The translations under genes and the position numbers were made by a program. Under the pieces are notes generated by a model. That model made no database searches and was not told the origin of the DNA. It saw nothing but the letters and a program-made list of their open reading frames with translations. 22,423 nt of DNA from a virus (taxonomy: Duplodnaviria > Heunggongvirae > Uroviricota > Caudoviricetes): positions 64,001 through 86,423 of the IMG/VR virus record IMGVR_UViG_3300033153_005726, one strand, 5' to 3'. Positions 2,541 through 21,815 of this stretch are shown in pieces; the stretch's first letter is position 1, and every line of letters begins with the position of its first letter.

Positions 2541-2573
2541 TTTCTTCTTCCTTCTTGTATAGGCTTAGTATGA

Positions 2574-2604
2574 ATGATGGAGGGCTTTTACACCCCCCAC
2601 CAGT
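2574..2604 (-). terminator. Hairpin after the tail tube gene (terminator/attenuator-like)
   Basis: TGGTGGGGGG-TGTAAAAG-CCCTCCATCA stem with G-U pairs; only a weak U tract. Confidence 0.45.
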
Positions 2605-2622
2605 ATGTAGCTTAGATACTTC

Positions 2623-3672: not shown

Positions 3673-3696
3673 TGTGTAATCCTCCTTAGGATTTTA

Positions 3697-4612: not shown

Positions 4613-4983
4613 TAGGTTTTCCTTAATAGTAAGATGTACAAGGCTTCTGCAGGATCTGTTTTATATGCAATAATAGCATACGTGATTGTATCGTCCCTGA
4701 CGATAACATCCCTAGTTGATAAAGAAGTTATACCATTATCACGTAACTGCTTGCCTCTGACAAGACCTTTTACGTCAGTTGGTTGGATTAAATTAGAAAA
4801 AGATAAAAATTGAACATCTCGCTCTGCGAAAGTATCAACTATTAAATCTATTGGGTGAGAAGTGCTTGTATCAACATCAAAGCCGTCTTTTTTGACCACA
4901 GTATATTGTGCTTTGTACACAAGGCTTTTAAATACCTTGAAAACAGTCACAGCAGCCTTTTGAAACGTCGTATTCAATGACAT
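4612..4983 (-). CDS. Head closure / head-tail joining protein
   Basis: 123 aa beta-rich protein between the adaptor and the gp10-like gene; synteny. Confidence 0.6.
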   Translation of the reverse strand: MSLNTTFQKAAVTVFKVFKSLVYKAQYTVVKKDGFDVDTSTSHPIDLIVDTFAERDVQFLSFSNLIQPTDVKGLVRGKQLRDNGITSLSTRDVIVRDDTITYAIIAYKTDPAEALYILLLRKT

Positions 4984-4999
4984 GGTACTTTGCCCTTAA

Positions 5000-5500
5000 T
5001 TATGCACGCATTAACCGCACAACTCCGATACCACTCTTTGTAGTTAATCCCTCAAGGATTTTCCAAATGTGGTCGGGGATTGTATCAGGTTTAGTATTAT
5101 ACAAACCATCATCAGCTTTAATCATTAATGATGCTGCACGTACCTCAGAAATACCAGCAAGGTCACTATCTTGTGTTCGGTCGCTACCAAGTGATGCTAA
5201 TGCCATTTCAAAAACAGCAGTTTTTACATCAGGTGGTATTACATCCTCAGGATACAATATAGCAACCTTATCGTATACACCAGAACGAGGCCAATCCATA
5301 CTTTGCGTACCAGTTGCACGGGTACCTTTCCAAGTAACGTGCCAATCAATGACTCGAGAAGCGGTAATCAGAGCTTGATCCTGATTCTCCTCTTCTTCCC
5401 AAGCACTTGAATGTGCCCTGTCAGCAAAATACGCATTAGCCTCGGCCAGCGTAACATAACTGTTGGTGGAAGCACCACCAACTGTGGCGTCTATAGCCAT
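5000..5500 (-). CDS. Head-tail adaptor (phage DnaT-like family)
   Basis: NSYVTLAEANAYFADR...ALITASRVID...QSMDWPR...IPPDVKTAVFEMAL, the characteristic pattern of this adaptor family. Confidence 0.8.
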   Translation of the reverse strand: MAIDATVGGASTNSYVTLAEANAYFADRAHSSAWEEEENQDQALITASRVIDWHVTWKGTRATGTQSMDWPRSGVYDKVAILYPEDVIPPDVKTAVFEMALASLGSDRTQDSDLAGISEVRAASLMIKADDGLYNTKPDTIPDHIWKILEGLTTKSGIGVVRLMRA

Positions 5501-5503
5501 AAT

Positions 5504-5737
5504 CTACTCCGCTTTTTTAGCAGTACGACGTTTCTTAGGTGCAGCCTTTTTAGGGGCTTCTTTAACTGACTTAACTTCTTCAGCTTTAGGCTCTTCTACC
5601 TTAGCTGGTTTTGGTTCAGGTTTGGGTTCAGGTTTTGGCTTAGATTCGGTACGTGACCAACCAGCATTTTCCATAGCTGGTATTTGCTCAACATTGGCAA
5701 TACAAGCAGAGCCACCCTTATACATTTTCACAGGCAT
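5504..5737 (-). CDS. Small hypothetical virion-module protein with Lys/Glu/Pro-rich tail
   Basis: SD AGAAGGAG; KPKPEPKPEPKP and KKAAPKKRR low-complexity tail; follows the capsid gene. Confidence 0.7.
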   Translation of the reverse strand: MPVKMYKGGSACIANVEQIPAMENAGWSRTESKPKPEPKPEPKPAKVEEPKAEEVKSVKEAPKKAAPKKRRTAKKAE

Positions 5738-5760
5738 TGATTTCTCCTTCTGTCAATTGT

Positions 5761-5788
5761 AGGGTGGCTCTGCAAAGAAAACCACCCT
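5761..5788 (-). terminator. Hairpin after the major capsid gene
   Basis: AGGGTGG...CCACCCT inverted repeat 25 nt after the stop codon; no clear U tract. Confidence 0.45.
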
Positions 5789-5812
5789 GCAATCAAGGGT
5801 TAATGTTCAAGA

Positions 5813-6979
5813 TTACTGAGTGTCACCAAGCAGGGTAATTCGGCGAGGATCATGTGCAAATGCACCACACAGTAAGTCAAGAGACATTGTGGTTTTCTTG
5901 GTATTGATGTCATACCCTTTTACGATTCGGATACTTACTCCGTTATTGGCGGCAGTAGCGGTAACTTTATCTCCGGGCATATCCAGCATTGGGAATGCAA
6001 CGGCAAGAGAACGGTCATCAAAAATAGCACCGTGAATATCAAATGTTGCAGCCTGTCCGCCAACGATGGTGATTGCAGCATCATCAGCGATGATCTCTGT
6101 AATAGGATCAACCAAGGTAACAGTGGTAGCAGCATTTACATCAGCTACTTCAGCAGCAACGATGAGAGGACGACGACAACCAGCAACCAAAATACGATCA
6201 CCAGCAAGAAGTGTCTCAGCAACAGTACCACCATCAAAGGTCAGCACTTTGAGGCCAATCTTGTTATTGGTAGCAACAGTGTTGTCGGTCAACAGCGTAC
6301 CAACAGCACCAAGGGTACCATTAGTGCGGGCAGATTCAGGGAATGTGATAGCAGAGTACCAATCCATACCCATTACGTGCCCCATCTTTCCTGTATTCAG
6401 GGTAGTCTCACCAGCAGCACCACGGGTCTGTGATTGATTGAACCAAGTTTGACCGAGCATTTTTGCTTCAGTATCAAGGTCGACCAGACAGAAACGGTTT
6501 GTGGCAAGTTGTTGCAGAGTAGACGCTTTACGGGCAAGTGCGATATCAGCAGCATCAACAAACAGGTCAGCAGAAGTATACAATCCAGCACCCTGAAGGA
6601 TTTTACCAGCAACATATTTCTCAGTCATCTCAGCGAGACGATAAGCAGCAGGGCGGATTACTTGATCACTGAAAGAATCAAGGTCAAGTACTTCTTCACG
6701 AGCAGTCACTTCAACGGAAACGTCAAGGTGCTTTTCAATCTGCATTGCACGACTGGATGTCTGAATGTCCTGAATGTTAATGGTACCAGTGAAATCTTCA
6801 GCAGCGTAATCACCATGTGTACGGAAGGAGACAGTGTCGCCTTTTTTCCAGCCATTTGCTTTGCTGGTAAACTCAGCAGTATTGTCCTTAGCACACATAT
6901 TGGTCACTACAAGAGCGTCCTCAAGGTGTGTAAGAGCTTCCTGAGCAATGATTGCGGGATGTTCCCATATATTGGCCAT
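5813..6979 (-). CDS. Major capsid protein, P22 coat-like (HK97 fold with insertion domain)
   Basis: IIAQEALTHLEDALVV...KKGDTVSFR...LDLDSFSDQVIRPAAYRLAE...SLDLLCGA pattern; strong SD GGAGG; follows the scaffold gene. Confidence 0.88.
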   Translation of the reverse strand: MANIWEHPAIIAQEALTHLEDALVVTNMCAKDNTAEFTSKANGWKKGDTVSFRTHGDYAAEDFTGTINIQDIQTSSRAMQIEKHLDVSVEVTAREEVLDLDSFSDQVIRPAAYRLAEMTEKYVAGKILQGAGLYTSADLFVDAADIALARKASTLQQLATNRFCLVDLDTEAKMLGQTWFNQSQTRGAAGETTLNTGKMGHVMGMDWYSAITFPESARTNGTLGAVGTLLTDNTVATNNKIGLKVLTFDGGTVAETLLAGDRILVAGCRRPLIVAAEVADVNAATTVTLVDPITEIIADDAAITIVGGQAATFDIHGAIFDDRSLAVAFPMLDMPGDKVTATAANNGVSIRIVKGYDINTKKTTMSLDLLCGAFAHDPRRITLLGDTQ

Positions 6980-7000
6980 CTTTAAATTCCTCCAAAGAAT

Positions 7001-7519
7001 TTAGGTACTTAGTACCTTTTTATCAATTAAATAATGCTTGGCGGGGCTATACCCACCCCAAGCTAAACACTGTTCAGCAGCATAACGAGCACAAACAGCA
7101 TTGATTTTGTTAACATACAAACCAAGATGCCTAAATTTACCACATACAGTTATTCTCGCAAGCCATTTTCCGTGATTTCTACCTACTCCTTTAATTCCAC
7201 TAGTCGTGTTATTTTTAGGTGTAGCTTGATTACGTTCATTATATGATTGAAAGCATTTCACTAAATTACAATACCGATCATCGTTCCGTATTCTGTTATC
7301 ATGATCAACTTGCCCATTAGGAAATTCCCCTTCCATATAAAGGATTGCTAAACGTCCTGCCCTATAACACTTACCCTTGATTTTAATTTGGGTATACCCT
7401 TTATGAGTAATTGTGCCAGCAACAGAACCAATCTTAATCTGTGCTCTACTAACTCTCCAAGTAAATAAGCCAGTATTAGGATTGTAACATAATAGTTTCT
7501 TTAATTCAACTTGGTTCAT
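7001..7519 (-). mobile_element. Free-standing HNH homing endonuclease with C-terminal AP2 domain
   Basis: LCYNPNTGLFTW...GY..IKIKGKCYRAGRLAILYMEGEFP...DHDNRIRNDDRYCNL...NTTSGIKGV...KWLARI...HLGLY; more AT-rich than its flanks. Confidence 0.9.
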
Positions 7520-7606
7520 TTTTAATCTCCATTAAAAATAACTCATATATAAATTGAGGCGGGGAGTGAGTTGCTCCTTTTCAACCGCTAAGTCTAGCCC
7601 CAAACC

Positions 7607-7639
7607 TTAAACATTAGCAGAATCTGGGATATTAGCCAT
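7607..7639 (-). pseudogene. Truncated duplicate of the capsid gene start (MANIPDSANV*)
   Basis: 7629-7665 is a near copy of 6969-7003 (SD GGAGG + ATGGCYAATAT). Confidence 0.7.
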
Positions 7640-7831
7640 TTTGAAATTCCTCCAAAAAGAATTTATGTTTAAATCGTTATAAGTTAATTTGGCCGATCAG
7701 TACTACTTCTTCTTTAATGAACTTTCCCAATGGCCTCTGGCCGTTCCCAATCCTCAGGATCGTTAGTAGGGATATCATTGTTATGTTATAGGCTAACAAT
7801 CTATTTGTCAACCTATAATTTTAAATTACTA

Positions 7832-8593
7832 TTATCCCGCCATTTGTGTCCTGAGGCGACGGTAACCTGCCATATCGCCTTTCTTGGCGAGGGCAGCAAG
7901 TTTCTCGGTTGTGTCCGCATCACCTGTAATGTTACCACCTTGTGCACCTGAACCTTCAGATGAAGGCCAGTAATGTGGGCTTACAGTTTTCAAACCTTCC
8001 ATCCATACAGATGGGGTTACGACATTACCGTCTTCATTTTTTTGCAATTTACCATCAGAAGTACGGGCTTCAACGCTACCATCAGTCCCAAGATTGAACA
8101 GGGTCTTCGCATGAAGTAATACATCAGGGATTGCTTCTGGTCGAATACCAGCTTTGATAGCAACAGCACGGAGAGCATCATCCATGATTTTAGTTTGGTA
8201 CAGTCCTTTATACTTACCTTTACCATCTGTCACCTCAAGTAATTTCTCACTCAAATCGGTAATAGCAGTATCATGTTCAAGACGCATTGTTGAGGTACGC
8301 TTCTCAAGAAGCTCATCAAATTTACCATCACGGATCATTTGGGCTTCTTCACTTTCATTAATGAACTTTAGTGCTTTAATAGCTTCCTCAGGATCACTGA
8401 TGTCGGCAAACTTCTGAAGTTTCTCTTGAATGGTTTTCTTCTCTCCGAGAAGTTCTTCATTCTTAGTTTTCAGGCCAGCAACAGCAGCAGATATCTTTGA
8501 ATCAATATCCTCAGTGTTTGCTTTCACTTCTGCGTTATAAGCCTCTTCAGCTTGTCCTCTTAATTTGTCATCTTCAATAAACGTAAAATCCAT
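7832..8593 (-). CDS. Capsid scaffolding protein
   Basis: Coiled coil GLKTKNEELLGEKK, C-terminal SPHYWPSSEGSGAQGG; sits between portal and capsid. Confidence 0.8.
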   Translation of the reverse strand: MDFTFIEDDKLRGQAEEAYNAEVKANTEDIDSKISAAVAGLKTKNEELLGEKKTIQEKLQKFADISDPEEAIKALKFINESEEAQMIRDGKFDELLEKRTSTMRLEHDTAITDLSEKLLEVTDGKGKYKGLYQTKIMDDALRAVAIKAGIRPEAIPDVLLHAKTLFNLGTDGSVEARTSDGKLQKNEDGNVVTPSVWMEGLKTVSPHYWPSSEGSGAQGGNITGDADTTEKLAALAKKGDMAGYRRLRTQMAG

Positions 8594-8651
8594 GGTATTC
8601 CCTCCAGGAATAGTTGCAGTAGTCTCTGACTACCAAGTCGTCCGTTGTGGA

Positions 8652-10220
8652 CTATTTTTTGCCCTTTTTAGGCTGTGGTTTCTTTTTCGGTGCTTCTAGT
8701 TCTTTCTTTTTATCTTTACCGTCATTATTATCATCTTTCTTGGGGTTGTCAATAGGATTTCCATCGTCTATCAAATCAGTCGCTGTAGAAACAGCTTCTT
8801 CAATTGTAAGGCCAGCTTCGTCAAAAACTTTTTTACCTTCAATGAGTTGCTCTATATATTCTTTTTCACTTATAGTCTGATCAAGTAAACCGGAACCTAC
8901 AAGATATTTATGAATAACACCAAGTGGAATAACATTTTGGCCAAAACCTTCAAGAATACTTCTGATAACATTAGAATCAGGTATCCCGTAAGTCAATGCG
9001 GATGGTGCATCAATAATAACATCGTCTTTATTAAATCCAGCCCATTTGCACATTAACTCAAGGCCACCTTTAACAGCATTGAGTGCAGAAAGGTACACAC
9101 TGTAGATACTAGCTGATTGTGTAGCCTGACGGATACGGAGTGCTTCAGCAGACTCAACACCTTTACGTGAATCAAGAATGGCAACACCATGACGAATAGC
9201 TTCCTCATATAAATCATCAATATGAGTCTTGACATGCTTTAATGCTGCTGTATCAGTTTCGGTATAAAAGATACGTGCCTGTGGGTCAGGTAGAACAATC
9301 ATTACTGAGGAGCCAACCACATTAGGTAGATCGTCATCATTAGAAGCGCCAACCATGCAAAGAGTTGGATTGCAACTAAGGAACTCGCTATTTGCGAGGT
9401 CTGCTTCTTTTCGATAAATCTGGATGGAACAATTAGCCACAGACAAAAGTGGGATAGGCTGATTGTCAGTACTATTGTTAATAGAACCAGCAACAAAAAG
9501 TGGAAGTTCATCAATTGTTGAGCCCATATAAGAAGGTTTTGTAAAAAAGTCAGTAAGCTCATGTCCTTTATCATCATATAAATGAGAAACGTAGTTACCA
9601 TCTTCCATACACAATACTCTGTATACATCAACTGTGTCATGCGAGAAAATATCTTCATCTGAAGGCATTGCTTCTTTCAAAACACCTAGAATGAGGTTTT
9701 TCTCTGAACCCATTGACTGCTCTTTCCAGTTAATAAAAGCTTCTGCATTGTATTTAACAAATTTGAACTGATTAGTTCCAGGGTCAATATCAACTACCAA
9801 TGGACACTTACCTGTTTGGAGAATCTCAATAACAATCTCCATAAACAACTGCTGAATAGTAATACCATCCTTTGTTGCTTCTTTAAGGATATACTCCATT
9901 TGTTTAGGGACGTTAAATTCAGGTAGTTTAGTTATAATGACACCCAAGGCACCTTGAAGTGCATACGAACAAATTTGGGGGTAATGTGCCCTCTCAATGT
10001 ATGCGTCATAGGCTTCAGCAAATTCACCTGTCATACCGCCAGGGCGTGGAAGGTACTTTTCAGTTTGCAATTTAATATGAGATTCACTTTGAATACAATC
10101 ACGGATTCTATCCCAATCTTTTTCCTGGGACATATAATTGGGATGTTTTAATGTAGGATCAGAACTTTCAGTAATTCTCTGTTTCCCTGCGAATACTTCT
10201 GCACCTTTATTAATAGTCAT
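8652..10220 (-). CDS. Portal protein (DUF4055 / SPP1-like)
   Basis: HPNY...WDRIRDC...EKYLPRP...YDAYIERA...PIPLLSVANCSIQIYRKEADL...ESAEALRIRQ; directly after TerL. Confidence 0.9.
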   Translation of the reverse strand: MTINKGAEVFAGKQRITESSDPTLKHPNYMSQEKDWDRIRDCIQSESHIKLQTEKYLPRPGGMTGEFAEAYDAYIERAHYPQICSYALQGALGVIITKLPEFNVPKQMEYILKEATKDGITIQQLFMEIVIEILQTGKCPLVVDIDPGTNQFKFVKYNAEAFINWKEQSMGSEKNLILGVLKEAMPSDEDIFSHDTVDVYRVLCMEDGNYVSHLYDDKGHELTDFFTKPSYMGSTIDELPLFVAGSINNSTDNQPIPLLSVANCSIQIYRKEADLANSEFLSCNPTLCMVGASNDDDLPNVVGSSVMIVLPDPQARIFYTETDTAALKHVKTHIDDLYEEAIRHGVAILDSRKGVESAEALRIRQATQSASIYSVYLSALNAVKGGLELMCKWAGFNKDDVIIDAPSALTYGIPDSNVIRSILEGFGQNVIPLGVIHKYLVGSGLLDQTISEKEYIEQLIEGKKVFDEAGLTIEEAVSTATDLIDDGNPIDNPKKDDNNDGKDKKKELEAPKKKPQPKKGKK

Positions 10221-10221
10221 A

Positions 10222-12723
10222 TTAAAATCTCACTTTACGTCTCTTCATTTTAGTAAATTTACGGGTCAATCCGTAACGGAGTGCATCCATTGCATGATCC
10301 TCTAAATCAGAATCAATATCCTCAGGTTTTTTATCATCAATCTGCTGAATAGGTAAAGTTCTAATGTGATGTCTTGCAGGTTCTTGGAAATAAAGTCCAG
10401 GATTTTCAAGGTCACCCCGTTTGGCTGCACCAAGCATAGTTCGCATCAAACCCCAACCAGCTACACGACTACCGCTTCCTTTATAAGCTTTCCGCCAATG
10501 TAACCCATGACGTTGCATATTAGATGCAAGTGAAGAACCATCACGTACTTCATAAATATTTGTATCAGCGGGTCCTGGCCTCACCCTTACTTTAAACTCC
10601 CTTTCAATGTTTCTGTCAACTTCTAAAACACGTTCAGCAATATCTTGTGATGTTGCACGGTCACCTTCGTTGACCGTTCCATTCCAACCGTATAACTCAT
10701 TTATAACAATTGAAGAGCCATCTGGGAAATAAGGTAATTCTTCATCAGGGGCATCAGGTTGCTCTCCATTACATTCTGCAATATAAGTAACTGCCCATGG
10801 TTTTGAAGAACCCCAGTCAAAACTTCTGATAACATCCCAACTTGACGGGATTTGGAAATAGGGAAGTATATGTTTTGCAGGATCCCATAAATCAGTGAAA
10901 AACCCACCAGCAATAATATCCCACTCACCAAGTACCCATGCTTTATACTTAACAGGATCATCAGCAGCAGCAGCTAAGATAGTATTAACATAATTTGGAT
11001 CTGCGTCAAGTAATGTGGTATTCTCACTCAGGCTTGAGGGTATATGAACCCTTGTTTTCATACTTTCTTTATCAAGAAAGAATTTCATTGCGGGCATAGG
11101 GTCGATAAAACGCTGCTTCACCCAACCATGTCCTGGACCTGAAGGGTTGCAGGTACTACGATACTTTCTTGGTACATCAGGGTCTGAACAACGGTTACAT
11201 GACATCATTGAAAGATAACATTCGTCTGTAGCCCAGTTTGTAAGCTCTTCCCAACCAATCCAAGGATATTCATGACCATGATAGTTCCAGTAATCACTTG
11301 GTACACGCATATATCGCAAATATAAGGTTTCGCCGTCAGGGAATGTCCATTTATGCTCACTTCCGTTATATTTGGCTCCAGGGAATATTTGACTGATCCA
11401 TTTCTTACTTTTATTGATTACATCGGTTAATTGAGTGTATTCTTCACGAAAAAGAATACCACGCCATTCAATACCATAGCCTACACCCACATGCTGCAAG
11501 AAATCCATCAAGAGTACATCAGTATTGTGTGTTACGATAAAATCATCTGTTAGGTAAAGTCCATTTGGATTATTTACCTTAATACACTGACATTCTTCTT
11601 TTCCTATCAAATCTATGCTAACTATTTTGCGCACTAACCTACCATGCATATAATCAGCGGCTTTATCTTTTTTACGTTGTAATCTAAACAGTTCTTTTTG
11701 TTCAGGCAACCGTATATAAAGACCCCAACCTTTTTTTGTTTTCTTATAAAAACCTTTAGGCCACTCTGCTTTTCTATACTTGAATTGGTTCCCACGCTTC
11801 CCACCAATCAGTGTAGACCACCCACCTAAACTACCAATCAAAAACTGAATGTCTTTTATTAATGTATAAGAAGCGCTAGAATAATAGGCTTTTCCATCAT
11901 GAGCCTCTCCGTCAGTATCCATTAAACCTTGTAGTAAAGCAATCCTATCTTCTATAGAAGCATAGAGGTATTTTTTAGGTACAAATTTTGTATCGCTTTT
12001 AGTTCCCCGTAATTTAGAATGCTTTAAATCGTCATATAGCGGATTGTTTCTACGTATTTGCAACCCTATACAACTACCATCTCCTTTAACAGTAGTCGTT
12101 TTGGTATTATAAAAACCAAAACGACTAACGTAATCAACTAATTCCTGATCACCTGTATGAAAACAAACATCTTCTCTACTAAGAGATCCATCCCCTAACA
12201 ACAACCCTAATAAATAAGGATCAAAAGAATGTTGTGCTTTACTACTTATTCCTTTATTAAAAGAAACAGGTTCTGGGCAAGGTATTAAAAAAGTATTTCC
12301 AGCTTTTACTTTTTCTATAAGTTGGGTAGTTGTATAAATGTATCCACTAAATTGTAATGGGGCATATATTTTGTCTTTATTTCTGGATTTATTCCTATTG
12401 GCTACTTTTCCATACCATAAATGCTCATCAGTGCAGTGAGTGACACTACCATCTGAAAATTTAATTCTATATACATCTTGAACCCCTTGTGGGTACACAC
12501 CAATAACAGTACTGCACGTACCATCTGGGTTGAAGACACGGCTACCTATTTGCATTTCGCCTACAGTACGTTCCCCGTATGGGGTCTGCACAGGTGATGA
12601 TAGTGGTTGAGCTTTCCCACCACCACGGTTTCCGGCAATTAATGCCTCATCAGCAGGGCAAGTCAGGAACTTTTTCTGACTTCCAGGATGTGGTTGCCAT
12701 ATGACTTTATCTTGCGCAATCAT
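10222..12723 (-). CDS. terL: Terminase large subunit precursor (470 aa after removal of a 363-aa intein)
   Basis: Walker A GNRGGGK|T split by the intein, Walker B IGWEELT, TCNPSGPGHGWVK, nuclease residues FDWGSSKP and DHAMDALRY. Confidence 0.95.
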   Translation of the reverse strand: MIAQDKVIWQPHPGSQKKFLTCPADEALIAGNRGGGKAQPLSSPVQTPYGERTVGEMQIGSRVFNPDGTCSTVIGVYPQGVQDVYRIKFSDGSVTHCTDEHLWYGKVANRNKSRNKDKIYAPLQFSGYIYTTTQLIEKVKAGNTFLIPCPEPVSFNKGISSKAQHSFDPYLLGLLLGDGSLSREDVCFHTGDQELVDYVSRFGFYNTKTTTVKGDGSCIGLQIRRNNPLYDDLKHSKLRGTKSDTKFVPKKYLYASIEDRIALLQGLMDTDGEAHDGKAYYSSASYTLIKDIQFLIGSLGGWSTLIGGKRGNQFKYRKAEWPKGFYKKTKKGWGLYIRLPEQKELFRLQRKKDKAADYMHGRLVRKIVSIDLIGKEECQCIKVNNPNGLYLTDDFIVTHNTDVLLMDFLQHVGVGYGIEWRGILFREEYTQLTDVINKSKKWISQIFPGAKYNGSEHKWTFPDGETLYLRYMRVPSDYWNYHGHEYPWIGWEELTNWATDECYLSMMSCNRCSDPDVPRKYRSTCNPSGPGHGWVKQRFIDPMPAMKFFLDKESMKTRVHIPSSLSENTTLLDADPNYVNTILAAAADDPVKYKAWVLGEWDIIAGGFFTDLWDPAKHILPYFQIPSSWDVIRSFDWGSSKPWAVTYIAECNGEQPDAPDEELPYFPDGSSIVINELYGWNGTVNEGDRATSQDIAERVLEVDRNIEREFKVRVRPGPADTNIYEVRDGSSLASNMQRHGLHWRKAYKGSGSRVAGWGLMRTMLGAAKRGDLENPGLYFQEPARHHIRTLPIQQIDDKKPEDIDSDLEDHAMDALRYGLTRKFTKMKRRKVRF
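11524..12612 (-). mobile_element. Intein with LAGLIDADG homing endonuclease, Ala1 start, class 3 WCT signature
   Basis: Starts AQPLSSPVQTP, block B TDEHLW, LAGLIDADG motifs YLLGLLLGDG and LLQGLMDTDG, block F CQCIKV, ends IVTHN followed by Thr+1. Confidence 0.93.
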
Positions 12724-13157: not shown

Positions 13158-13766
13158 TTAATTCTCACCTTCCCATTCTTTCTGGGATTGTTGGGCAGGT
13201 ACCATGAGTACACCAGCAGTAATGTTTAAATTTTTACTCTCCATTTTATCAGAGTATCCAAGTTTATTTCCTGCAAGAAATTTAAACAGGCCAGTATTGT
13301 AACTTCGGTTATCAAGGTTTTCTTTACCTTCACGTAACCACCAAGCCTCATGCATATCTTTACCAATATCATAAGCGGTATTGAAATCAGCAAATCTCTC
13401 AGACCACCCTCGCAGGGTAGTTACACTAACCCCAAATTCAGCAGCAATCTCAACATCGCTTAATCCCTCTCGGCTCAAAGCAATGAATTGTAAAGGGTGA
13501 CCATCAGGATCGTATTTGGTATTCATCAAAGTACCTATAGGAATTTCTCTGACTTCCAATAAGTTCTCTTTAATCACAGGGTCACCACCACACCGTTTGC
13601 AAATCACTCCTTTACCAACAGCATTATGCGTGCACCCTTCAGTCATGCATTGTTCTTTAGGGTATCGTTTAATAACTTTTATCTTGGGTTCACTTTTAAG
13701 TTTTTCAGGCCGTCTTAACTTTTTCTTACCTGACCCAACGCTTAACCTTCTACGTAATTTAGACAT
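13158..13766 (-). CDS. terS: Terminase small subunit with N-terminal Cys4 motif and HTH
   Basis: TKYDP...GLSDVEIAAEFGVSVTTLRGW..RFADFNTAYDIG...EAWW is a typical TerS HTH; located upstream of TerL. Confidence 0.8.
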   Translation of the reverse strand: MSKLRRRLSVGSGKKKLRRPEKLKSEPKIKVIKRYPKEQCMTEGCTHNAVGKGVICKRCGGDPVIKENLLEVREIPIGTLMNTKYDPDGHPLQFIALSREGLSDVEIAAEFGVSVTTLRGWSERFADFNTAYDIGKDMHEAWWLREGKENLDNRSYNTGLFKFLAGNKLGYSDKMESKNLNITAGVLMVPAQQSQKEWEGEN

Positions 13767-14031
13767 GAGATAAATCTCCTAAAGCATTTTGATACATCCT
13801 GATATCAAGAGTCTGGTCAAGCATATCAGCAAGTAAAGTATCTACAATAAATCCACTAAGTCCTTTGGCAGTATCCCCTTCCCATTCATCCATAATACTG
13901 TGGCATACGTCAAGGACATGATCTTGAACCTTCTGTGCATCATTACCACAAATAACATAGTGCAGGGCACAAACACTATCCCTGATTGAAACTGAGGTAA
14001 CTCTACCATTTATTCTTGTTGATACTTTCAT
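13759..14031 (-). CDS. Hypothetical protein, first gene of the late operon (possibly ribbon-helix-helix-like)
   Basis: 90 aa; the beta-strand-like start KVSTRINGRVTSVSIRD is reminiscent of RHH proteins; overlaps the TerS start by 8 nt. Confidence 0.5.
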   Translation of the reverse strand: MKVSTRINGRVTSVSIRDSVCALHYVICGNDAQKVQDHVLDVCHSIMDEWEGDTAKGLSGFIVDTLLADMLDQTLDIRMYQNALGDLSHV

Positions 14032-14086
14032 TCCCTGTACACTCTTTCATTCCCTGTACACTCTTTCATTCCCTGTACACTCTTTC
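14025..14086. repeat. 3.3 x 19-bp tandem repeat CTTTCATTCCCTGTACACT
   Basis: Exact copies at 14025, 14044 and 14063; each carries AGGGAATG on the minus strand. Confidence 0.95.
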
Positions 14087-14112
14087 CTTCTATTGGATGA
14101 TCAATTGATACC

Positions 14113-14141
14113 AGTGTACATGTTATCTTTTTATCTGTCAA
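14113..14141 (-). promoter_or_regulatory. Sigma70-type promoter for the morphogenesis operon
   Basis: TTGACA-N17-TACACT on the minus strand. Confidence 0.8.
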
Positions 14142-14241
14142 GTTAAAAAGACACCTCAAATACTACCAATGCTTTTATCTAAAAATTTTGGGGTATTACA
14201 GGAGTATTATAGGGGTACTTTTAACTTCTTCAGAACAAACA

Positions 14242-14285
14242 GGTCAAGAGATGGTCAAAGAATGGTCAAGGGATGGTCAAGGGAT
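14242..14285. repeat. 4 x 11-bp tandem repeat GGTCAARRRAT
   Basis: ggtcaagagat, ggtcaaagaat, ggtcaagggat, ggtcaagggat. Confidence 0.9.
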
Positions 14286-14353
14286 GTCTAAATCCTTTGT
14301 GGGTATACAAAGATGTAAAAGCAAGGAGGTGTGAAGTCTGATTGTACTCTTGA

Positions 14354-14397
14354 TGGTTGAATTTCAACCAACTAGGAGGCAGCATTTCAACCAACTA
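14354..14397. promoter_or_regulatory. 17-bp palindrome TGGTTGAA-T-TTCAACCA plus a repeated half site
   Basis: Perfect 8-bp arms; ATTTCAACCAACTA is repeated at 14361 and 14384. Confidence 0.5.
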
Positions 14398-14464
14398 ACT
14401 CTTATACTACTACTGATAGTATATTACTTCGTAATATACCTACCCTCCTACGTCGGGTTCGTAA

Positions 14465-14503
14465 TTAAATGATGTTTTTAAATGATGTTTTTAAATGATG
14501 TTT
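14465..14503. repeat. 3 x 13-bp tandem repeat TTAAATGATGTTT
   Basis: Exact copies at 14465, 14478 and 14491. Confidence 0.95.
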
Positions 14504-14698
14504 TATTTCACTACCACTTCACAGTACCTTGCATAAATAAAGCAGCTCAGGGAATAAAAAGAAATACCTTGATAAAACCTTGTACCGCCCCGTACAGCGT
14601 TTTTTACATACTGGGTATGCCATTGTACCATTAAACCTGTTACAGACGCATGAGCAGCTCTACAGAGGTCTTTAAAGGTTCTTGGTGATGCTGGTTAT

Positions 14699-14894
14699 AA
14701 GCGTAAGCGTGAATATAAGCGTAAGCGTAAGCGTAAGCGTGAATTGATAACTAAAATACCACGATAGCACGATAAAAAGCTGTCAGGATGAGAAAAGCGT
14801 AAGCGTGAATTGATAACTAAAATACCACGACAGCACGATAAAAAGCTGTCAGCGTGAATTGATAACTAAAATAATACGCTAGTACGATAAAAAG
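14699..14894. repeat. AAGCGT hexamer runs plus 3 x ~50-bp direct repeat AGCGTGAATTGATAACTAAAATACCACGATAGCACGATAAAAAG
   Basis: Long units start at 14736, 14802 and 14851 (third more diverged); eight AAGCGT copies. Confidence 0.95.
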
Positions 14895-14999
14895 TTCTCC
14901 GCTATAGATGCCCCCGCCCCTGTTTCAAACAAAAGGCATCAAAGTAAAACCAAATGAAAAAACAACGCTAAAACAGGTATTTAAAAGTGAAATTAAACC

Positions 15000-15027
15000 T
15001 TGCAATAGTATATAAACACTGCATAAT
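15000..15027 (+). promoter_or_regulatory. Probable sigma70 early promoter
   Basis: TTGCAA-N16-CATAAT in AT-rich context, followed by hairpins at 15036-15056 and 15063-15076. Confidence 0.6.
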
Positions 15028-15104
15028 AAATCATGGCAAGTGAATAATCACTTTGCTATATAGCTGAATTTTCAGCAAAAATTCATACCTTAAAGGGTGA
15101 TAAA

Positions 15105-15809
15105 ATGAAAGTAACAAAAAACAGTAGTAATGGTAATGGCAACAACGTAGCAAAAACATCAAAAATTCAAGTAGTTAGCATTAATAACAGGCGTGCAATA
15201 AATGCACCCACTACTGTACCGCAAGTAGTTGAAATGACTGATGTTTTTAAGCAAGTGCAATCACTGAGTAGTTTAACAGTTGAAAATGGGTATTTACTTG
15301 ATGCAAGTGGTTGTTATTACTCACCATTTGGGCATGGTAAAAAACGTGAACTGGCTAAAATGGCAAACAACGCCCAAATTGATGTGGCCTTGTGTCAAGG
15401 GGCCGTAATGATTGATATTTTAGTAAGTGATACTGATACGCCAAGTAGGGTATGCAATAGGCATAATGAGTATGATATTGAAAAACGGCCTGAATGCAAT
15501 AACACACTAAATCAGCTATTTACACTTGATTTAATTTATAATCACTTAGCATTTTTAAGTGGTAAAGGTAATGGCAAAAATAGCCTACAAAAACGGTTAC
15601 TTAACACACTTGACAAAGCCACTATTGAGCAAGTGAATGACATTGCTAGCCAGGTACATGAAATCATTACAAAAATGTGGGTTACGTGTGAGCATATGAT
15701 AAACACACGTGATGGTAGTAAAAAGCATAGTGCTCAACAGTACCAACAAACCTGTGAAATATCAGGTACTTACGGCAGGTCATTCAGTACCAAAGCAGCA
15801 ATTGTATAG
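15105..15809 (+). CDS. Hypothetical early protein, paralog of 20326-20814
   Basis: SD variant AAGGGTG; shares SPFGH, ID.ALC.G and HL.FLSG..NGKN.L..RL with the paralog. Confidence 0.85.
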   Translation: MKVTKNSSNGNGNNVAKTSKIQVVSINNRRAINAPTTVPQVVEMTDVFKQVQSLSSLTVENGYLLDASGCYYSPFGHGKKRELAKMANNAQIDVALCQGAVMIDILVSDTDTPSRVCNRHNEYDIEKRPECNNTLNQLFTLDLIYNHLAFLSGKGNGKNSLQKRLLNTLDKATIEQVNDIASQVHEIITKMWVTCEHMINTRDGSKKHSAQQYQQTCEISGTYGRSFSTKAAIV

Positions 15810-15821
15810 CTGGTAACTAAC

Positions 15822-15848
15822 ACCTTGCCAGCATAGTGCTGGCAAGGT
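15822..15848. other. Perfect 12-bp inverted repeat between early genes
   Basis: ACCTTGCCAGCA-TAG-TGCTGGCAAGGT; no U tract. Confidence 0.9.
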
Positions 15849-15882
15849 AACTAACTGATAACACATAACAAAGGACAACAAA

Positions 15883-16044
15883 ATGACAATTACAATCAAT
15901 ACGCAAACTACTGAAATCATTGACAATAATGACCTACAGCAATTAGCTGATGATTGTCAGCAACTTACTGAAATCATTGATGAATTTAATGACCTGAATA
16001 CTGATATTGATTATGAGCTACTTGATGGTACAATCATCAAATAA
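15883..16044 (+). CDS. 53-aa highly acidic protein (not in the ORF track)
   Basis: SD AAGGA, MTITINTQTTEIIDNNDLQQLADDCQQLTEIIDEFNDLNTDIDYELLDGTIIK; 13 D/E versus 1 K. Confidence 0.8.
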   Translation: MTITINTQTTEIIDNNDLQQLADDCQQLTEIIDEFNDLNTDIDYELLDGTIIK

Positions 16045-16147
16045 GTGAACAATTACAATGAGTTAGCTATGTTAGCTCATTGTGCTGGTTTACTTATAAA
16101 CCAAATGGCAATATTGCCAACAATAACACCTACTTAGGGGTAACAAC

Positions 16148-16825
16148 ATGAACTTAATTGAAAGTAATGACTACCAAACAACCCGTTTAAATAACCGTTT
16201 TAACTCATTAAATTTGAATGACCTGCAAGCTGAGACGGTAATTTGTATAGCATATGCAATATGCTATACACTTGATGAATATGAAAATTTCATGAATAAA
16301 ATCAGTATTGCAGGCACTATCGCTGATAATGTTGATGATATAGTAAAGCAGTTTAATATTGCTCATTTTGTTGGCTGCGATGATGTACTTACCGGACCAC
16401 AATGTATAAGTGAATTCACTGAAATTGAAAATAAGTATAAACACCCCACGGCAATAACGCCAACCACCCCTACAACTGAGGACGTAAAAATGACTGATTT
16501 ATCAATGACTAATTTAACTGGTAAAATTGAATCAAGTGAACCTGATGTATGTTTTGAATCATTGAATGCTATGAACATCATGTTTTGTGTAATGAGTATT
16601 GATCCAATGCTTGAATATGCACAAGCCACAAAAATTGTAAATTCAATACGGTATGCAACAAACCACGTTGAGTTTGACTGGACACCAAGTTTACAACTTG
16701 ATGAAGTGAGCCAAGTAATTTTCATGGTAAATGATAAGTACAATAAAAGTAATGCTGATTTTGATGCTTCACAAATGCTTGATATGTGTGATTACGAACA
16801 CAAAAACGCATTTAAAATAGTGTAA
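16148..16825 (+). CDS. Hypothetical acidic protein, possible internal start at 16490
   Basis: SD variant TAGGGGT; 225 aa open frame. Confidence 0.8.
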   Translation: MNLIESNDYQTTRLNNRFNSLNLNDLQAETVICIAYAICYTLDEYENFMNKISIAGTIADNVDDIVKQFNIAHFVGCDDVLTGPQCISEFTEIENKYKHPTAITPTTPTTEDVKMTDLSMTNLTGKIESSEPDVCFESLNAMNIMFCVMSIDPMLEYAQATKIVNSIRYATNHVEFDWTPSLQLDEVSQVIFMVNDKYNKSNADFDASQMLDMCDYEHKNAFKIV

Positions 16826-16840
16826 TCATTAATCATTAAC

Positions 16841-16874
16841 TAGTTGCTGGTAGCAATAACGCTACCAGCAACTA
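16841..16874. other. Perfect 14-bp inverted repeat between early genes
   Basis: TAGTTGCTGGTAGC-AATAAC-GCTACCAGCAACTA. Confidence 0.9.
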
Positions 16875-16891
16875 CTACCTAGGAGAACGAC

Positions 16892-17314
16892 ATGAACGCA
16901 ATACTTATTAACGGTTTGGCAATAACTTATACAGTAACGGCAATATTTGACTATAGAGAAAACTACGCAGCCAACGACTGGGATGGCGAAGGTCACTGTC
17001 CACAATGCTGGAAGTGTAAATATGGCGATGATATACTGGTCGCTGATGGTATCACACAAGAAATGCTGGATGATGCAGCGTTCATGGAAACGCTGTATGG
17101 GATGGCAAGGGAGCATGATTATGGCAACGATTATGCTACTAATTGGTTCAGTCACTTTGATGTCTCACTCTCTGGTGCACCAACAAGAGATGAGGAAATG
17201 GACCTGGAGATGATGGAATGGGAAAGTAACATGGCTAGGGAAGCAGCATATGAGGAAGTGGGCAGTGACGGATACTGGATGACAGTAGCGGAAAGCATGG
17301 GTTATGAAGCGTAA
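16892..17314 (+). CDS. Hypothetical acidic phage protein with ENY..DWDGEG.CPQ.WK motif
   Basis: SD TAGGAG; the motif recalls a conserved uncharacterised phage family (from memory, not searched). Confidence 0.8.
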   Translation: MNAILINGLAITYTVTAIFDYRENYAANDWDGEGHCPQCWKCKYGDDILVADGITQEMLDDAAFMETLYGMAREHDYGNDYATNWFSHFDVSLSGAPTRDEEMDLEMMEWESNMAREAAYEEVGSDGYWMTVAESMGYEA

Positions 17315-17434
17315 GACGTGAAGGGGGTGGGTATCTTGACTGATACCGCCTCGTTATAAAGGGGTGGGTATACAGGGGTATACCCATCACATCTAAACAG
17401 GGGGATATAGACAGCCCCCATATAGGAGAACAGT

Positions 17435-17659
17435 ATGAAACGAGTAGCATGGATTACAAATGAGACAATCACCGTATGTGAAGTACCTGAAATTGACCTG
17501 TACGACCCTAGAGACGGTGAGTGCCAAAATGCATATGGGGTGCATACGGTAGCAGTGGACGGGGATATTAGTGATTATCATATTATCAACGTTATGGAAA
17601 CGGCATTTCTTGATTGGAGCACTGTTGACTATATTTGTGCAGAGCGGCATAGCAAGTAG
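17435..17659 (+). CDS. Hypothetical acidic protein
   Basis: SD TAGGAGAACAGT-ATG, 74 aa. Confidence 0.75.
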   Translation: MKRVAWITNETITVCEVPEIDLYDPRDGECQNAYGVHTVAVDGDISDYHIINVMETAFLDWSTVDYICAERHSK

Positions 17660-17672
17660 ACACCTGGATTAC

Positions 17673-17701
17673 TTGCTAAACGATGGTATATATACTATAC
17701 T
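17673..17701 (+). promoter_or_regulatory. Sigma70-type promoter
   Basis: TTGCTA-N17-TATACT followed by AAAAATAAAAACAC. Confidence 0.7.
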
Positions 17702-17768
17702 AAAAATAAAAACACACGGGGTATGTCACCTACGACATACCCCACAACAACCCTTAGGAGGGTATATC

Positions 17769-17987
17769 ATGACTACAAATAAACAAGTAGCTCAAACGAC
17801 AATAGCAGTTCAACATGGTGGCGACATTGACCATATCACTAAATGGGTTCATGCTGTCCGTATGACTGATGAAAATGATATGGGTACGACATTCACCCGT
17901 ATAGCCACTTGGTTCAATGAAACTTGGGAGGTTACCATTTATGAAGGCAATCAGTATGCTGCCGACATAATCAGCAAAACACTGTAG
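17769..17987 (+). CDS. Hypothetical protein (72 aa; start corrected from 17571)
   Basis: SD TAGGAGG directly upstream of ATG 17769; MTTNKQVAQTT... Confidence 0.75.
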   Translation: MTTNKQVAQTTIAVQHGGDIDHITKWVHAVRMTDENDMGTTFTRIATWFNETWEVTIYEGNQYAADIISKTL

Positions 17988-20325: not shown

Positions 20326-20814
20326 ATGACAAATCTTAACACTTTCAAAGCTATTGCCGAGAGAGCAGTCAATTCACCTAAGATAGCTGAAATTACAGAC
20401 GCCAATGCTGCATTGGATGAGCTTAGACTTCTGAATCTGCAGGGGCAGATGCAAGGTAATCGCCACTTGTCACCGTTTGGACATAACGCTACTGCTACCA
20501 ACGGGGATATTGATTTTGCTCTGTGTCGTGGGGAGCGTTTGTTGGACGATGTGATTGACAAAGTAAGTCGTTTCAAGAAGACACGTAAGGCTGACTATAG
20601 TACAGACAGAGGCGCATTGGCAAAATGTGTAGATCAGCACTTGAAATTCTTGTCAGGCCGCAATAATGGTAAGAATCGCCTTGCAGACCGCCTTATACGC
20701 TTCATGGGTGAAGATAAAATGGCACAGGCCATTGAAATGGAAGCTCAGATACACGCTATCATGTCACCTATTTACGATAGGATGCACACTGCATACCTTG
20801 CCACCTATAAGTAG
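20326..20814 (+). CDS. Hypothetical early protein, paralog of 15105-15809
   Basis: SD TAGGAGG; shared motifs as above. Confidence 0.85.
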   Translation: MTNLNTFKAIAERAVNSPKIAEITDANAALDELRLLNLQGQMQGNRHLSPFGHNATATNGDIDFALCRGERLLDDVIDKVSRFKKTRKADYSTDRGALAKCVDQHLKFLSGRNNGKNRLADRLIRFMGEDKMAQAIEMEAQIHAIMSPIYDRMHTAYLATYK

Positions 20815-20872: not shown

Positions 20873-20955
20873 GAAGGACTGCTCAGGAAGCATGCGGGGG
20901 AAACATGAAGGACTGCATGGGAAACATGAAGGACTGCTCAGGAAGCATGCGGGGG
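20872..20955. repeat. 29-bp direct repeat TGAAGGACTGCTCAGGAAGCATGCGGGGG x2 with partial copies
   Basis: Copies at 20872-20900 and 20927-20955; partial TGAAGGACTGC at 20906. Confidence 0.9.
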
Positions 20956-21149: not shown

Positions 21150-21437
21150 GTGAAAAATAAATGTATTTCCGGGATCTCATATAGGAGCGTGAATGCAGCG
21201 AAAGAATCATTACACCGACAACAGGACTATGGGTGCCGTGTTAAGAGAGCCTACAGATGTAAGGAATGTGGGATGTTTCACTTAACAAGTAGTTCACGGC
21301 CATACCATAAAGAAGGAAGGGGGAGGGGGAAGAATAAGAGAATAAATGCCAAGACAGCCTTTTTAAGAAAGATGCTTGAGAGAAGAACTGCTAAACAGTT
21401 ATTACTAGGTAGACAACTCATGGAAGAATTAGTATGA
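21150..21437 (+). CDS. Basic putative zinc-binding protein
   Basis: GTG start with SD CAGGAG; C...RAYRCKECGMFHLTS. Confidence 0.75.
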   Translation: MKNKCISGISYRSVNAAKESLHRQQDYGCRVKRAYRCKECGMFHLTSSSRPYHKEGRGRGKNKRINAKTAFLRKMLERRTAKQLLLGRQLMEELV

Positions 21438-21515
21438 ACGGTGGGGGAGGAGTTAAGAACGGTGGGGGAGGAGTTAAGAACGGTGGGGGAGGAGTTATGA
21501 ACGGGGAGGAGTTAA
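21436..21515. repeat. 3 x 21-bp plus 1 shortened repeat GAACGGTGGGGGAGGAGTTAA
   Basis: Copies at 21436, 21457, 21478 and a 17-bp copy at 21499; each contains GGAGGAG. Confidence 0.95.
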
Positions 21516-21518
21516 GAA

Positions 21519-21815
21519 ATGGGTATCACTATTAGAGTAGGAGTTATTGCTATTGCTATTGGATTTGCTATAGCAGATGGAGTAGCAAGCAAGGATAGCG
21601 GTCACGAAACTTACCCTATTAAAGACTGTTGCCAGAACGGAGTGGGAAACCAGAACGGAGTGGGAAACCAGAATAAGTTGTTTGAATACCGTGCAGAGGA
21701 AAGGGACAAGAAGTTTATTGAAGATACAAAGTATAAACAAAGAAGGAGGGAAGAAAGGGCTAGAGAGAGGAATGAAGACTTTGATTACAAGATAAACCTT
21801 ATACTAGAGAATTAG
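21519..21815 (+). CDS. Hypothetical protein with N-terminal signal/transmembrane segment
   Basis: ITIRVGVIAIAIGFAIA; QNGVGN duplication (18-bp repeat at 21631-21672). Confidence 0.7.
   Translation: MGITIRVGVIAIAIGFAIADGVASKDSGHETYPIKDCCQNGVGNQNGVGNQNKLFEYRAEERDKKFIEDTKYKQRRREERARERNEDFDYKINLILEN

Follow-up and report, generated by a model that had tools for sequence, protein, structure and literature searches.

The ~2 kb next to the probable packaging (cos) site of an uncultivated long-tailed phage are almost completely stripped of the trinucleotides AGA, CGA and GGA on both strands (VGA/TCB), with 1 site in the strict zone of 1324 bp where 85–91 are expected. The same zone of 1.2–2.1 kb, with 0–3 sites where 85–150 are expected, lies at the same place in at least 8 relatives from independent metagenomes. 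A preliminary description, made from the sequence alone, had reported this depletion and had inferred that it marks first-entering DNA selected to lack a very short target. The depletion it described is confirmed by exact counts. Its interpretation is supported in part: selection on first-entering DNA remains the best reading but is not proven, whereas a phage hypermodification kept off early DNA, which it had offered as a second option, finds no support.

Depletion of VGA/TCB in the strict zone

We analysed a stretch of 22,423 nt (the window; positions 64,001 to 86,423 of the 86,423-bp IMG/VR record IMGVR_UViG_3300033153_005726, contig G000, classed as linear and 69% complete). The features of the zone and its surroundings are collected in Table 1. 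The expected count for the strict zone is 85 when derived from the 3-mer frequencies of the rest of the genome and 91 when derived from the rest of the window. Of the trinucleotides that contain GA or TC, 55 TGA and 26 TCA are retained. The left edge is abrupt, with CGA 14885, TCT 14896, TCC 14898 and AGA 14906 immediately before it. The exceptions in the relaxed part that follows are AGA 16233, TCG 16320, CGA 16378, GGA 16394, 16480 and 16680, TCC 16603 and CGA 16795, and normal use begins at GGA 16882.

Table 1 Features of the zone and neighbouring genes (window coordinates)
Position	Strand	Feature	Description
10222..12723	-	Large terminase subunit	833 aa; C-terminal half 51% identical to TerL of Pseudomonas phages M6/YuA
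13158..13766	-	Small terminase subunit (HTH)	Transcribed away from the zone; used as the anchor for finding relatives
13759..14031	-	90-aa gene	Heads the terS operon; conserved in relatives at 87–94 aa
14032..14888	.	Repeat-rich intergenic region	Between the terS operon and the C-run; normal VGA content; 19-bp unit x3.5, 11-bp unit x4, 13-bp unit x3, TAAGCG x7, 49/66-bp units x2; sits where cosB (small-terminase binding sites) would lie
14889..14936	.	Conserved cos-like site	AAAAAGTTC, a spacer, a C-run (CCCCCGCCCC at 14911–14920), TGT, then CAAACAAAAGG; contains the change from normal use to VGA-free; candidate cohesive-end or terminal cut site; same element at the near edge in L005, L006, L009, L010, L014, L015 and L018
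14909..16232	.	Strict zone	1 VGA/TCB, 81 TGA/TCA; non-coding DNA, ORF1, ORF2 and the first 85 nt of ORF3
15000..15027	+	Sigma-70-like promoter	TTGCAA, 16 nt, CATAAT, upstream of ORF1; consensus match only
15105..15809	+	ORF1	234 aa, pI 8.8; small phage-only family (basic, 200–240 aa) that is the first zone gene in the VGA clade; Shine-Dalgarno AAGGGTGA avoids GGA
15873..15875	+	Single exception in the strict zone	GGA in the Shine-Dalgarno-like AAAGGAC, 10 nt before the ATG of ORF2
15883..16044	+	ORF2	53 aa, very acidic (pI 4.1; 13 D+E, 1 K+R); small acidic second genes (56–71 aa, pI 4.1–4.5) follow gene 1 in L005, L006, L010 and L014
16148..16825	+	ORF3	225 aa, acidic (pI 4.3); no family match; holds the 8 exceptions of the relaxed part
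16233..16880	.	Relaxed part of the zone	8 VGA/TCB, about 45 expected
16843..16875	+	Perfect 13-bp hairpin	Closes the zone; read directly from the sequence; next gene (ATG 16892) uses TAGGAG

We then examined, as the preliminary description had set out as a test, whether the count is near expectation given codon and amino-acid use and whether equally deep troughs occur elsewhere. In 1-kb windows across the contig the mean is 63 VGA/TCB and the lowest value elsewhere is 38, compared to 1 in the zone. The longest VGA/TCB-free gaps, 967 and 360 bp, both lie in the zone, while the longest gap elsewhere is 135 bp. Resampling of synonymous codons with the genome's own usage gives 44.4 ± 5.2 sites for ORF1 (observed 0; lowest of 2000 resamplings 28), 8.5 for ORF2 (observed 0) and 41.9 for ORF3 (observed 8). 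The protein sequences are shaped as well: dipeptides that force a VGA, [MWKQE][DE], occur once in 512 residues compared to 2.5 per 100 elsewhere. An unbiased scan of all 2- to 4-mers over the contig ranks AGA/TCT at this place as the top outlier. The pattern is symmetric between strands, independent of reading frame and also holds in non-coding DNA, so it acts at the DNA level, and mRNA-level explanations (endoribonuclease or tRNA-based) were set aside for this reason.

Position and conservation of the zone

The near edge lies within a few nucleotides of the conserved C-run, which is followed by about 0.5–1.1 kb of repeats and then the terS-terL-portal-capsid operon, as in a cosN-cosB-terminase layout. 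In a lambda-type map this is the position of the last-packaged, first-ejected DNA. The physical end and the order of entry are inferred here from gene order only, and contig ends, which we tested as a possible mark of physical ends, do not pile up at the C-run.

Among the relatives, whose loci are designated L with a number, L005, L010 and L014 have 0 sites in 2.0–2.1 kb (136–152 expected), L011 has 0 in 1742 bp, L006 has 0 in 1235 bp, and L009 and L022 have 2–3 in about 1.2 kb. L015 and L018 are cut by contig ends, and L007 is leaky. The pooled strict zones have 0 sites in 10.5 kb. All of these loci fall in one TerS clade (support 94/93), although zone gene 1 is only 12–21% identical to the window's copy; the constraint is therefore old and actively maintained. 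In L007 the genes of the zone are inverted relative to the C-run, yet the zone stays next to it, so that position rather than direction of transcription is what is kept. L011 has two further VGA-free gene cassettes 1–4 kb further in, separated by VGA-rich repeats. Tandem repeats, of the kind that might act as a stop signal for entry, lie 50–150 bp beyond the far edge in L005 and L014 and between the cassettes of L011, but none lies at the far edge in the window. Partial depletion of GA-containing words in more distant relatives may partly reflect AT-rich non-coding DNA, and we do not count it as the same feature.

The complete 123,866-bp relative G001/L013, from another clade, instead lacks ACC/GGT over 2224 bp at the same place (0 compared to 38–44 expected), and GCC/GGC is also low there (5 compared to 25). 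This gap is the top outlier among all 2- to 4-mers of its genome. A target that changes between lineages at a fixed position is what an enzyme specificity predicts.

The zone proteins are ORFans. Megablast and tblastn of the zone and of ORF1 against 50,697 phage records found no match, and ORF1 has no relative in IMG/VR by peptide patterns. PHROG and Pfam scans of the zone proteins, of other early ORFs and of zone proteins of relatives found nothing, and a profile search of 1.8 billion representative proteins with the gene 1 family returned only 26 hits, all without a name. The AlphaFold model of ORF1 (pLDDT 72) has no recognisable nuclease fold and no Foldseek match at E <= 0.001, and its best VIA-align Z was 5.6, to generic helical proteins. 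The ESM Atlas gave no usable hit for ORF1, for the L014 homologue or for the 379-aa zone protein of G001, and the latter has no homologue in 5.8 billion proteins. A complex prediction of ORF1 (residues 38–234) with ORF2 gave no verdict. Rfam and tRNA scans of the region found nothing.

Candidate functions of the zone

We propose, with moderate confidence, that the zone is the terminal 1.3–2 kb on the far side of the cos site from the terminase genes and that this DNA is in the cell, and must stay intact and readable, before the phage is safe from an enzyme acting on double-stranded DNA at the three-base context VGA/TCB. Cutting or nicking is the most likely action. In this view, the zone carries host-type (sigma-70) promoters and the first genes to be expressed, a conserved basic protein of 200–240 aa and then a tiny very acidic one, a pair that looks like early host-takeover or anti-restriction genes. 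One site would then be costly, so that all sites would have been purged on both strands, down to codon choice, allowed dipeptides and Shine-Dalgarno sequences, variants of which, such as AAGGTGA, dodge GGA. The rest of the genome would keep its sites because it enters later or is covered by the early products. The analysis itself establishes the depletion, its edges, its position at a conserved site beside terS, its conservation and the change of motif between clades, whereas the physical end, the order and pausing of entry, and the existence and nature of the enzyme are inferences. The enzyme may be a host immune enzyme or the phage's own early enzyme that destroys host DNA, which we consider about equally likely; MAG labels of distant relatives are unreliable as a guide to the host. 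Several points weigh against the proposal. No enzyme with a VGA/TCB or ACC/GGT target is known and none was identified here, a bacterial restriction system with a three-base site would have to protect one host site every 16 bp, and a variable host system fits poorly with the same motif being kept across a deep phage clade. The zone proteins have no Pfam or PHROG match and the ORF1 model no nuclease fold, contig ends do not pile up at the C-run, the window lacks tandem repeats at the far edge, and T5 itself shows no total loss of any 3-mer in its first-step-transfer DNA. The additional cassettes of L011 need an extra assumption, such as displaced former zone modules. The claim of the preliminary description that the specificity is undescribed stands, as we found no paper that describes a VGA/TCB target.

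A bolder version, which we consider unlikely but not excluded, is that the zone reveals the substrate specificity of an undescribed, phage-inherited enzyme, VGA/TCB in this clade and ACC/GGT in another, that is made from the first-entering DNA and destroys or disables host DNA. The zone would be immune simply because it lacks the target while the rest of the genome waits outside, the conserved basic zone protein would be the enzyme and the small acidic neighbour its brake. This would be the mechanism proposed but never shown for T5 A1.

Of the alternatives, modification by the phage itself, by methylation or a bulkier group at VGA/TCB, appears unlikely. Immediate-early DNA would then have to stay unmodified, either because host RNA polymerase cannot use modified templates or because host modification-dependent (Type IV) nucleases, which read short degenerate contexts, would cut the first DNA to enter. 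Short degenerate contexts are typical of viral methyltransferases and of modification-dependent nucleases (McrBC reads R-mC; chlorovirus enzymes read CCD or RAG), and relatives carry DNA methyltransferases: G001 has an N6/N4 type and a split C5 type, relative G002 has a C5 type, and relative G004 has a D12 and a C5 type. The cassettes of L011 would fit a requirement tied to genes, and a modifying gene could lie in the missing part of the contig. However, a profile search with PF01702 (TGT/DpdA) gave no hit in G000 or in the five relatives G001–G005, two of which are complete, while the control genomes all scored, and G000 has no hit for three methyltransferase families in its 86 kb; these searches leave out whole records of the NCBI and ENA contigs of the VGA clade. 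Phage CAjan, cited in the preliminary description because it installs preQ0 at GA and GGC, has no long GA/TC or GGC/GCC gap, with a lowest GA/TC count of 78 per kb compared to a mean of 108. Fully modified phages such as T4 are transcribed by host polymerase, and in L006 and in the window the strict zone ends inside a gene rather than at the end of a transcription unit.

A mutational footprint is likewise improbable. Here, a context-specific DNA deaminase of host or phage would edit C in TCB on the first-entering DNA at each infection and erode the target away. Two- to three-base degenerate contexts are the hallmark of cytosine deaminases, the expected products are enriched in the zones (AAA/TTT 2.3-fold, CAA/TTG 1.45-fold) and most zones have lower G+C than their surroundings. 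Yet G+C barely drops in L006 and L010, GC-rich words such as GCGC, AGCC and GCCC are also enriched, which suggests compensation rather than decay, VGA-rich repeats directly abut both edges, and no anti-phage DNA-editing deaminase of this kind is known. Slightly less likely still is a packaging runway, in which the terminase nuclease, once armed by a nearly full head, could cut only at VGA-type sequences and a site-free stretch would force the final cut to fall at the cos site. The geometry is the same as for first entry, an agent inherited with the phage would explain the deep conservation and the change of motif between terminase clades, the constraint weakens with distance from the site in the window and in L006, and the zone, at about 1.6–2% of a genome of 100–125 kb, is near the usual imprecision of headful sensing. 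On the other hand, a conserved site-specific cos-like element suggests sequence-directed cutting, which needs no runway, no terminase is known to have a three-base cutting preference, the far edges are abrupt in L005, L010 and L014, and the promoters and early gene pair are left unexplained. CRISPR PAM avoidance was set aside because TTCA and other TCA contexts are kept, NCC is only partly avoided in G001, and processive type I nucleases would not spare PAM-free cassettes. Absence of any special function, by chance, codon bias, low G+C or acquisition of the module from a donor whose DNA lacks VGA, is very improbable: the zone has lower G+C (0.35 compared to 0.41) and unusual amino-acid content, but this is contradicted by the synonymous resampling, by the non-coding DNA, by the recurrence in independent metagenomes with edges anchored at a conserved site, and by the lack of any comparable place in 86 kb or 124 kb.

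Comparison with known systems

Avoidance of defence targets in first-entering DNA is known, but only for long and rare sites. Here, a three-base degenerate word expected once every 16 bp is lost over 1.2–2.1 kb, at a cost in codon choice, ribosome-binding sites and protein sequence. That the trait is held across a deep clade of uncultivated phages, while another clade avoids a different word at the same place, implies a DNA-acting activity with a very short context that has not been described. The zone also gives the target of that activity and a ready-made resistant and sensitive pair of substrates, so that the enzyme could be searched for directly, and a frequent-cutting or context-specific DNA enzyme would be of interest as a tool.

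Genome-wide avoidance of restriction sites in phages likewise reflects selection against short words recognised by DNA-cutting enzymes, but is known for 4–6-bp palindromes and is partial, whereas the word here is non-palindromic, degenerate and three bases long, and its loss is local and almost complete. The contexts of CAjan-type 7-deazaguanine modification by DpdA look alike, since GA resembles VGA and GGC is part of the GGY avoided in G001, but no TGT/DpdA was found in the genomes searched and CAjan itself has no zone free of these contexts. In APOBEC3 footprints in animal DNA viruses, a two- to three-base cytosine context (TC) is depleted on both strands as the mark of a host enzyme; those footprints are partial and genome-wide and favour loss of TCA, the one context kept here. 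Chlorovirus frequent-cutting and nicking enzymes (CCD, RAG, RGCY), used to degrade host DNA, are virus-encoded and have 2–4-base degenerate targets, but chloroviruses protect their own DNA by cognate methylation rather than by a site-free zone, and no homologue was found here.

The proposed logic is that shown for T5 first-step-transfer (pre-early) DNA and for the leading ends of T7-like phages. In T5, a terminal segment enters first, carries pre-early genes under host promoters and has an inner boundary marked by repeats. EcoRI and CRISPR act on T5 only through sites in this segment, which naturally lacks EcoRI sites, and it has been proposed that the T5 nuclease A1 spares this DNA because its sites are absent there (10.1101/866236). 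How T5 DNA escapes A1 is still unknown (10.64898/2026.04.02.716235), and the zone offers a concrete test of this old question, how the first DNA to enter escapes the destruction that hits host DNA. The T5 segment differs in being a 10-kb terminal repeat with A1, A2 and dmp, of which no homologues were found among the zone ORFs by PHROG and Pfam scans; the only metallophosphatase gene of the contig lies far away, beside an SbcC-like gene. T5 avoids 6-bp sites, and our scan of its segment finds no total loss of any 3-mer, only about 2-fold less AGA and 5-fold less AGAG. For our phage, two-step entry is proposed by analogy only. Among T7-like phages, absence of a Type I motif from the first-injected region, rather than from the genome as a whole, decides infection in Murciavirus with the Type I system Mme2I, and the first genes encode anti-defence proteins (PMC12455610). 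T7 Ocr is an acidic DNA mimic. Those targets are long bipartite Type I motifs of which a genome has only a few copies, whereas here about 90–150 potential sites per zone have been removed and the protein sequences have had to adapt.

Extent of VGA/TCB depletion

The count of VGA/TCB trinucleotides is exact. The strict zone (1324 bp) contains one VGA/TCB and 81 TGA/TCA, where 85 VGA/TCB are predicted from the rest of the genome and 91 from the rest of the window. The observation made in the preliminary description therefore holds, and the eight exceptions beyond the strict zone, as well as the cluster of CGA, TCT, TCC and AGA directly preceding it, are as listed there. The window represents the last 22 kb of an 86,423-bp IMG/VR contig (G000). 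In 1-kb windows across this contig, the mean is 63 sites and the lowest value elsewhere is 38, whereas the zone has 1. The longest site-free gap outside the zone is 135 bp, compared to 967 and 360 bp inside it, and an unbiased scan of all 2- to 4-mers ranks this place first.

We resampled synonymous codons to assess whether amino-acid or codon use causes the depletion, and find that it does not: resampling gives 44.4 +/- 5.2 sites for ORF1 (observed 0), 8.5 for ORF2 (observed 0) and 41.9 for ORF3 (observed 8). In addition, the dipeptides that would force a site are almost absent. The loss is the same on both strands and in the 196 bp of non-coding DNA at the start of the zone, so it acts on DNA, not on RNA or translation.

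Coordinates of the zone, its surroundings and related features in relatives
Sequence	Position	Strand	Feature
Window	14885-14908		Cluster of CGA, TCT, TCC and AGA
Window	14909-16232		Strict zone
Window	15873		GGA, the single VGA/TCB of the strict zone
Window	16233-16880		Eight VGA/TCB exceptions
Window	14032-15104		Intergenic region from which genes diverge
Window	15105-15809		Zone gene 1 (ORF1)
Window	20326-20814	+	Paralogue of zone gene 1
Window	20898-20949, 21436-21518, 21632-21673		Tandem repeats, units of 18-21 bp, between early genes downstream of the zone
Window	10222-12723	-	TerL, 833 aa
Window; G000	1-1827; 54200-65827	-	Tape measure protein, 3875 aa
G000 (L001)	16003-17775		ThyX (flavin-dependent thymidylate synthase) interrupted by an intein with an HNH/NUMOD endonuclease
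L001	4678-5244		NUMOD homing-type endonuclease between the SbcC-like and SbcD-like genes
G001 = L013 (record IMGVR_UViG_3300033144_006696)	L013 6740-8960; record 23370-25594		Stretch of 2224 bp without ACC/GGT
L011	4727-5292 and 5952-6598		Two further VGA/TCB-free islands, each covering one whole gene (130 and 168 aa) with its flanks
L010	6993-7205 and 8620-8648		Arrays of GGCT/GGGCT units inside a VGA-free zone
L057 (phage T5, NC_005859)	1-9600		First-step-transfer DNA

Genomic surroundings of the zone

The contig is a siphovirus, with tape measure protein, portal, major capsid protein and terminase on the minus strand and DNA ligase, SbcCD-like genes, dNMP kinase and ThyX on the plus strand. 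The length of the tape measure protein would predict a tail of well over 500 nm, whereas relatives have tape measure proteins of 1740-2459 aa. The contig is rated 69% complete by CheckV, and no DNA polymerase, helicase or primase was seen among its ORFs; the missing part probably lies between the window's right end and contig position 1, and would hold the replication genes. TerL is considerably longer than in several relatives (466-481 aa), and its first 400 residues match P-loop, primase or helicase-loader PHROGs. As the TerL of the relatives L010 and L014 (803-810 aa) carries a Pfam intein domain, an intein or other insertion is likely here too.

From the intergenic region, the terS-terL-portal operon runs to the left, and ORF1-3 and further small early genes run to the right. 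Between terS and the zone lie about 860 bp of tandem repeats with normal VGA content. The zone begins 3 nt before a C-run and contains a sigma-70-like promoter, Shine-Dalgarno sequences that avoid GGA, a basic 234-aa protein, a 53-aa protein of pI 4.1, an acidic 225-aa protein and a closing hairpin. The paralogue of zone gene 1 (profile E 3e-12) has the same S-x-F-G-H ... D motif and lies 4.5 kb further into the early region, where VGA content is normal; similar second copies occur in the related loci L005, L006, L014 and L022.

Conservation in relatives and a different word in another clade

TerS homologues led us to contigs from many metagenomes (loci designated L), and the same zone lies at the same place in the following ones. 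We find 0 sites in 2121 bp in L005 (149 expected), 0 in 2034 bp in L010, 0 in 2067 bp in L014, 0 in 1742 bp in L011 and 0 in 1235 bp in L006, while L009 and L022 have 2-3 sites in about 1.2 kb. In L015 and L018 the zone is cut by the contig start, and L007 is leaky, with 31 sites against 137 expected. In every one of these loci that is long enough to judge, the zone is the longest site-free gap by more than tenfold. Pooled, the strict zones give 0 sites in 10.5 kb. TGA/TCA is slightly enriched there, yet within the allowed TGA contexts of the pooled zones of the window, L005, L006, L010, L011 and L014, TGAG is about 2.7-fold depleted and CTGAG almost absent (2 against about 25 expected), hinting that G after GA, and C/G two bases before it, still matter to whatever reads the motif. 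CAGCC/GGCTG is about 5-fold enriched in the pooled zones, partly because of the GGCT/GGGCT arrays of L010. All these loci fall in one TerS clade (support 94/93), which also contains sublineages with only partial depletion.

The near edge always lies within a conserved element of about 50-65 bp: AAAAGTTC, a spacer, a C-run, TGT, then CAAAACAAAAGG. This element has the look and the position of a cos site, with the repeats as putative binding sites for the small terminase. Gene 1 of the zone belongs to one small family, whose members are only 12-21% identical to the window's copy and of which only 26 representatives turned up in a search of 1.8 billion proteins. The constraint has therefore outlasted most of the protein sequence. 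The family motif is G-H in all loci with a strict zone and G-R in L007, L009, L016 and L017, whose zones are leaky or partial; since these four may form one lineage, we consider the link a lead only.

A complete 123,866-bp relative from another TerS clade (G001/L013) has no ACC/GGT over 2224 bp at the same position (38-44 expected) and few GCC/GGC (5 against 25), whereas TCC and CCC are normal there. This gap is the top outlier of its whole genome. The zone of this relative holds an unrelated 379-aa ORFan, and the gene 1 family is absent from that genome. A third clade (L012, L044, L048) shows gaps of about 800 bp for GGA/TCC only.

Interpretation and comparison with known systems

In a lambda-type layout, the DNA on the far side of cos from the terminase genes is packaged last and leaves the capsid first. 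For the phage studied here, this order is inferred by analogy with cos phages, as is the DNA-acting enzyme invoked below from the pattern of avoidance, whereas the depletion, its position and its recurrence in relatives are read directly from the sequences. The best reading is that the segment is an immediate-early module that must survive and be read before the phage has dealt with an enzyme acting on DNA at a three-base context. The suggestion in the preliminary description that this is first-entering DNA selected to lack a very short target is partly supported. In L007 the zone stays next to the C-run even though its genes are inverted, which ties the trait to position. The enzyme may be the host's or the phage's own. 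A phage-inherited enzyme is favoured by three points: (i) the same word is kept across a deep clade, (ii) the word changes together with the zone's gene content, and (iii) T5 A1 has been proposed to be a nuclease whose sites are missing from the first-entering DNA (10.1101/866236), a question still unresolved for T5. The direct precedents favour a host enzyme, and against both options, no candidate enzyme was found. This reading leaves unexplained that the strict zone comes in two lengths, about 1.2-1.3 kb and about 2.0-2.1 kb, and that L011 has two further VGA-free gene cassettes inside the early region, separated by VGA-rich 19/38-bp tandem repeats, which may be displaced former zone modules.

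Alternatively, the phage's own modification, also raised in the preliminary description, could be kept off early DNA. However, no TGT/DpdA was found in this contig or in five relatives, CAjan, which modifies GA and GGC, has no such zone, and the strict zone ends inside genes in the window and in L006. As relatives carry DNA methyltransferases and this contig is incomplete, modification is nevertheless not excluded. A deaminase footprint fits the enrichment of AAA/TTT, but neither the enrichment of GC-rich words nor the unchanged G+C in two loci. A packaging runway shares the geometry, but is at odds with a site-specific cos element and does not explain the gene content. Chance, codon bias and foreign origin are excluded by the codon resampling, by the recurrence in relatives and by the unbiased word scan.

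We found no description of this feature, or of an enzyme with this target, in the literature. Avoidance of a defence target in first-entering DNA as such is known, and the same logic has been shown experimentally for T5 first-step-transfer DNA with EcoRI and CRISPR (10.1101/866236) and for the leading region of Murciavirus with a Type I system (PMC12455610). The zone described here differs in that the word has three bases and is degenerate and non-palindromic, the loss is total, it is conserved across a family of uncultivated phages, and the word differs between clades. In T5 first-step-transfer DNA, we find about 2-fold fewer AGA/TCT and GAG/CTC and 5-fold fewer AGAG/CTCT than in the next 30 kb, while the low GAACC count reflects tRNA genes in the comparison region; no word is lost completely.
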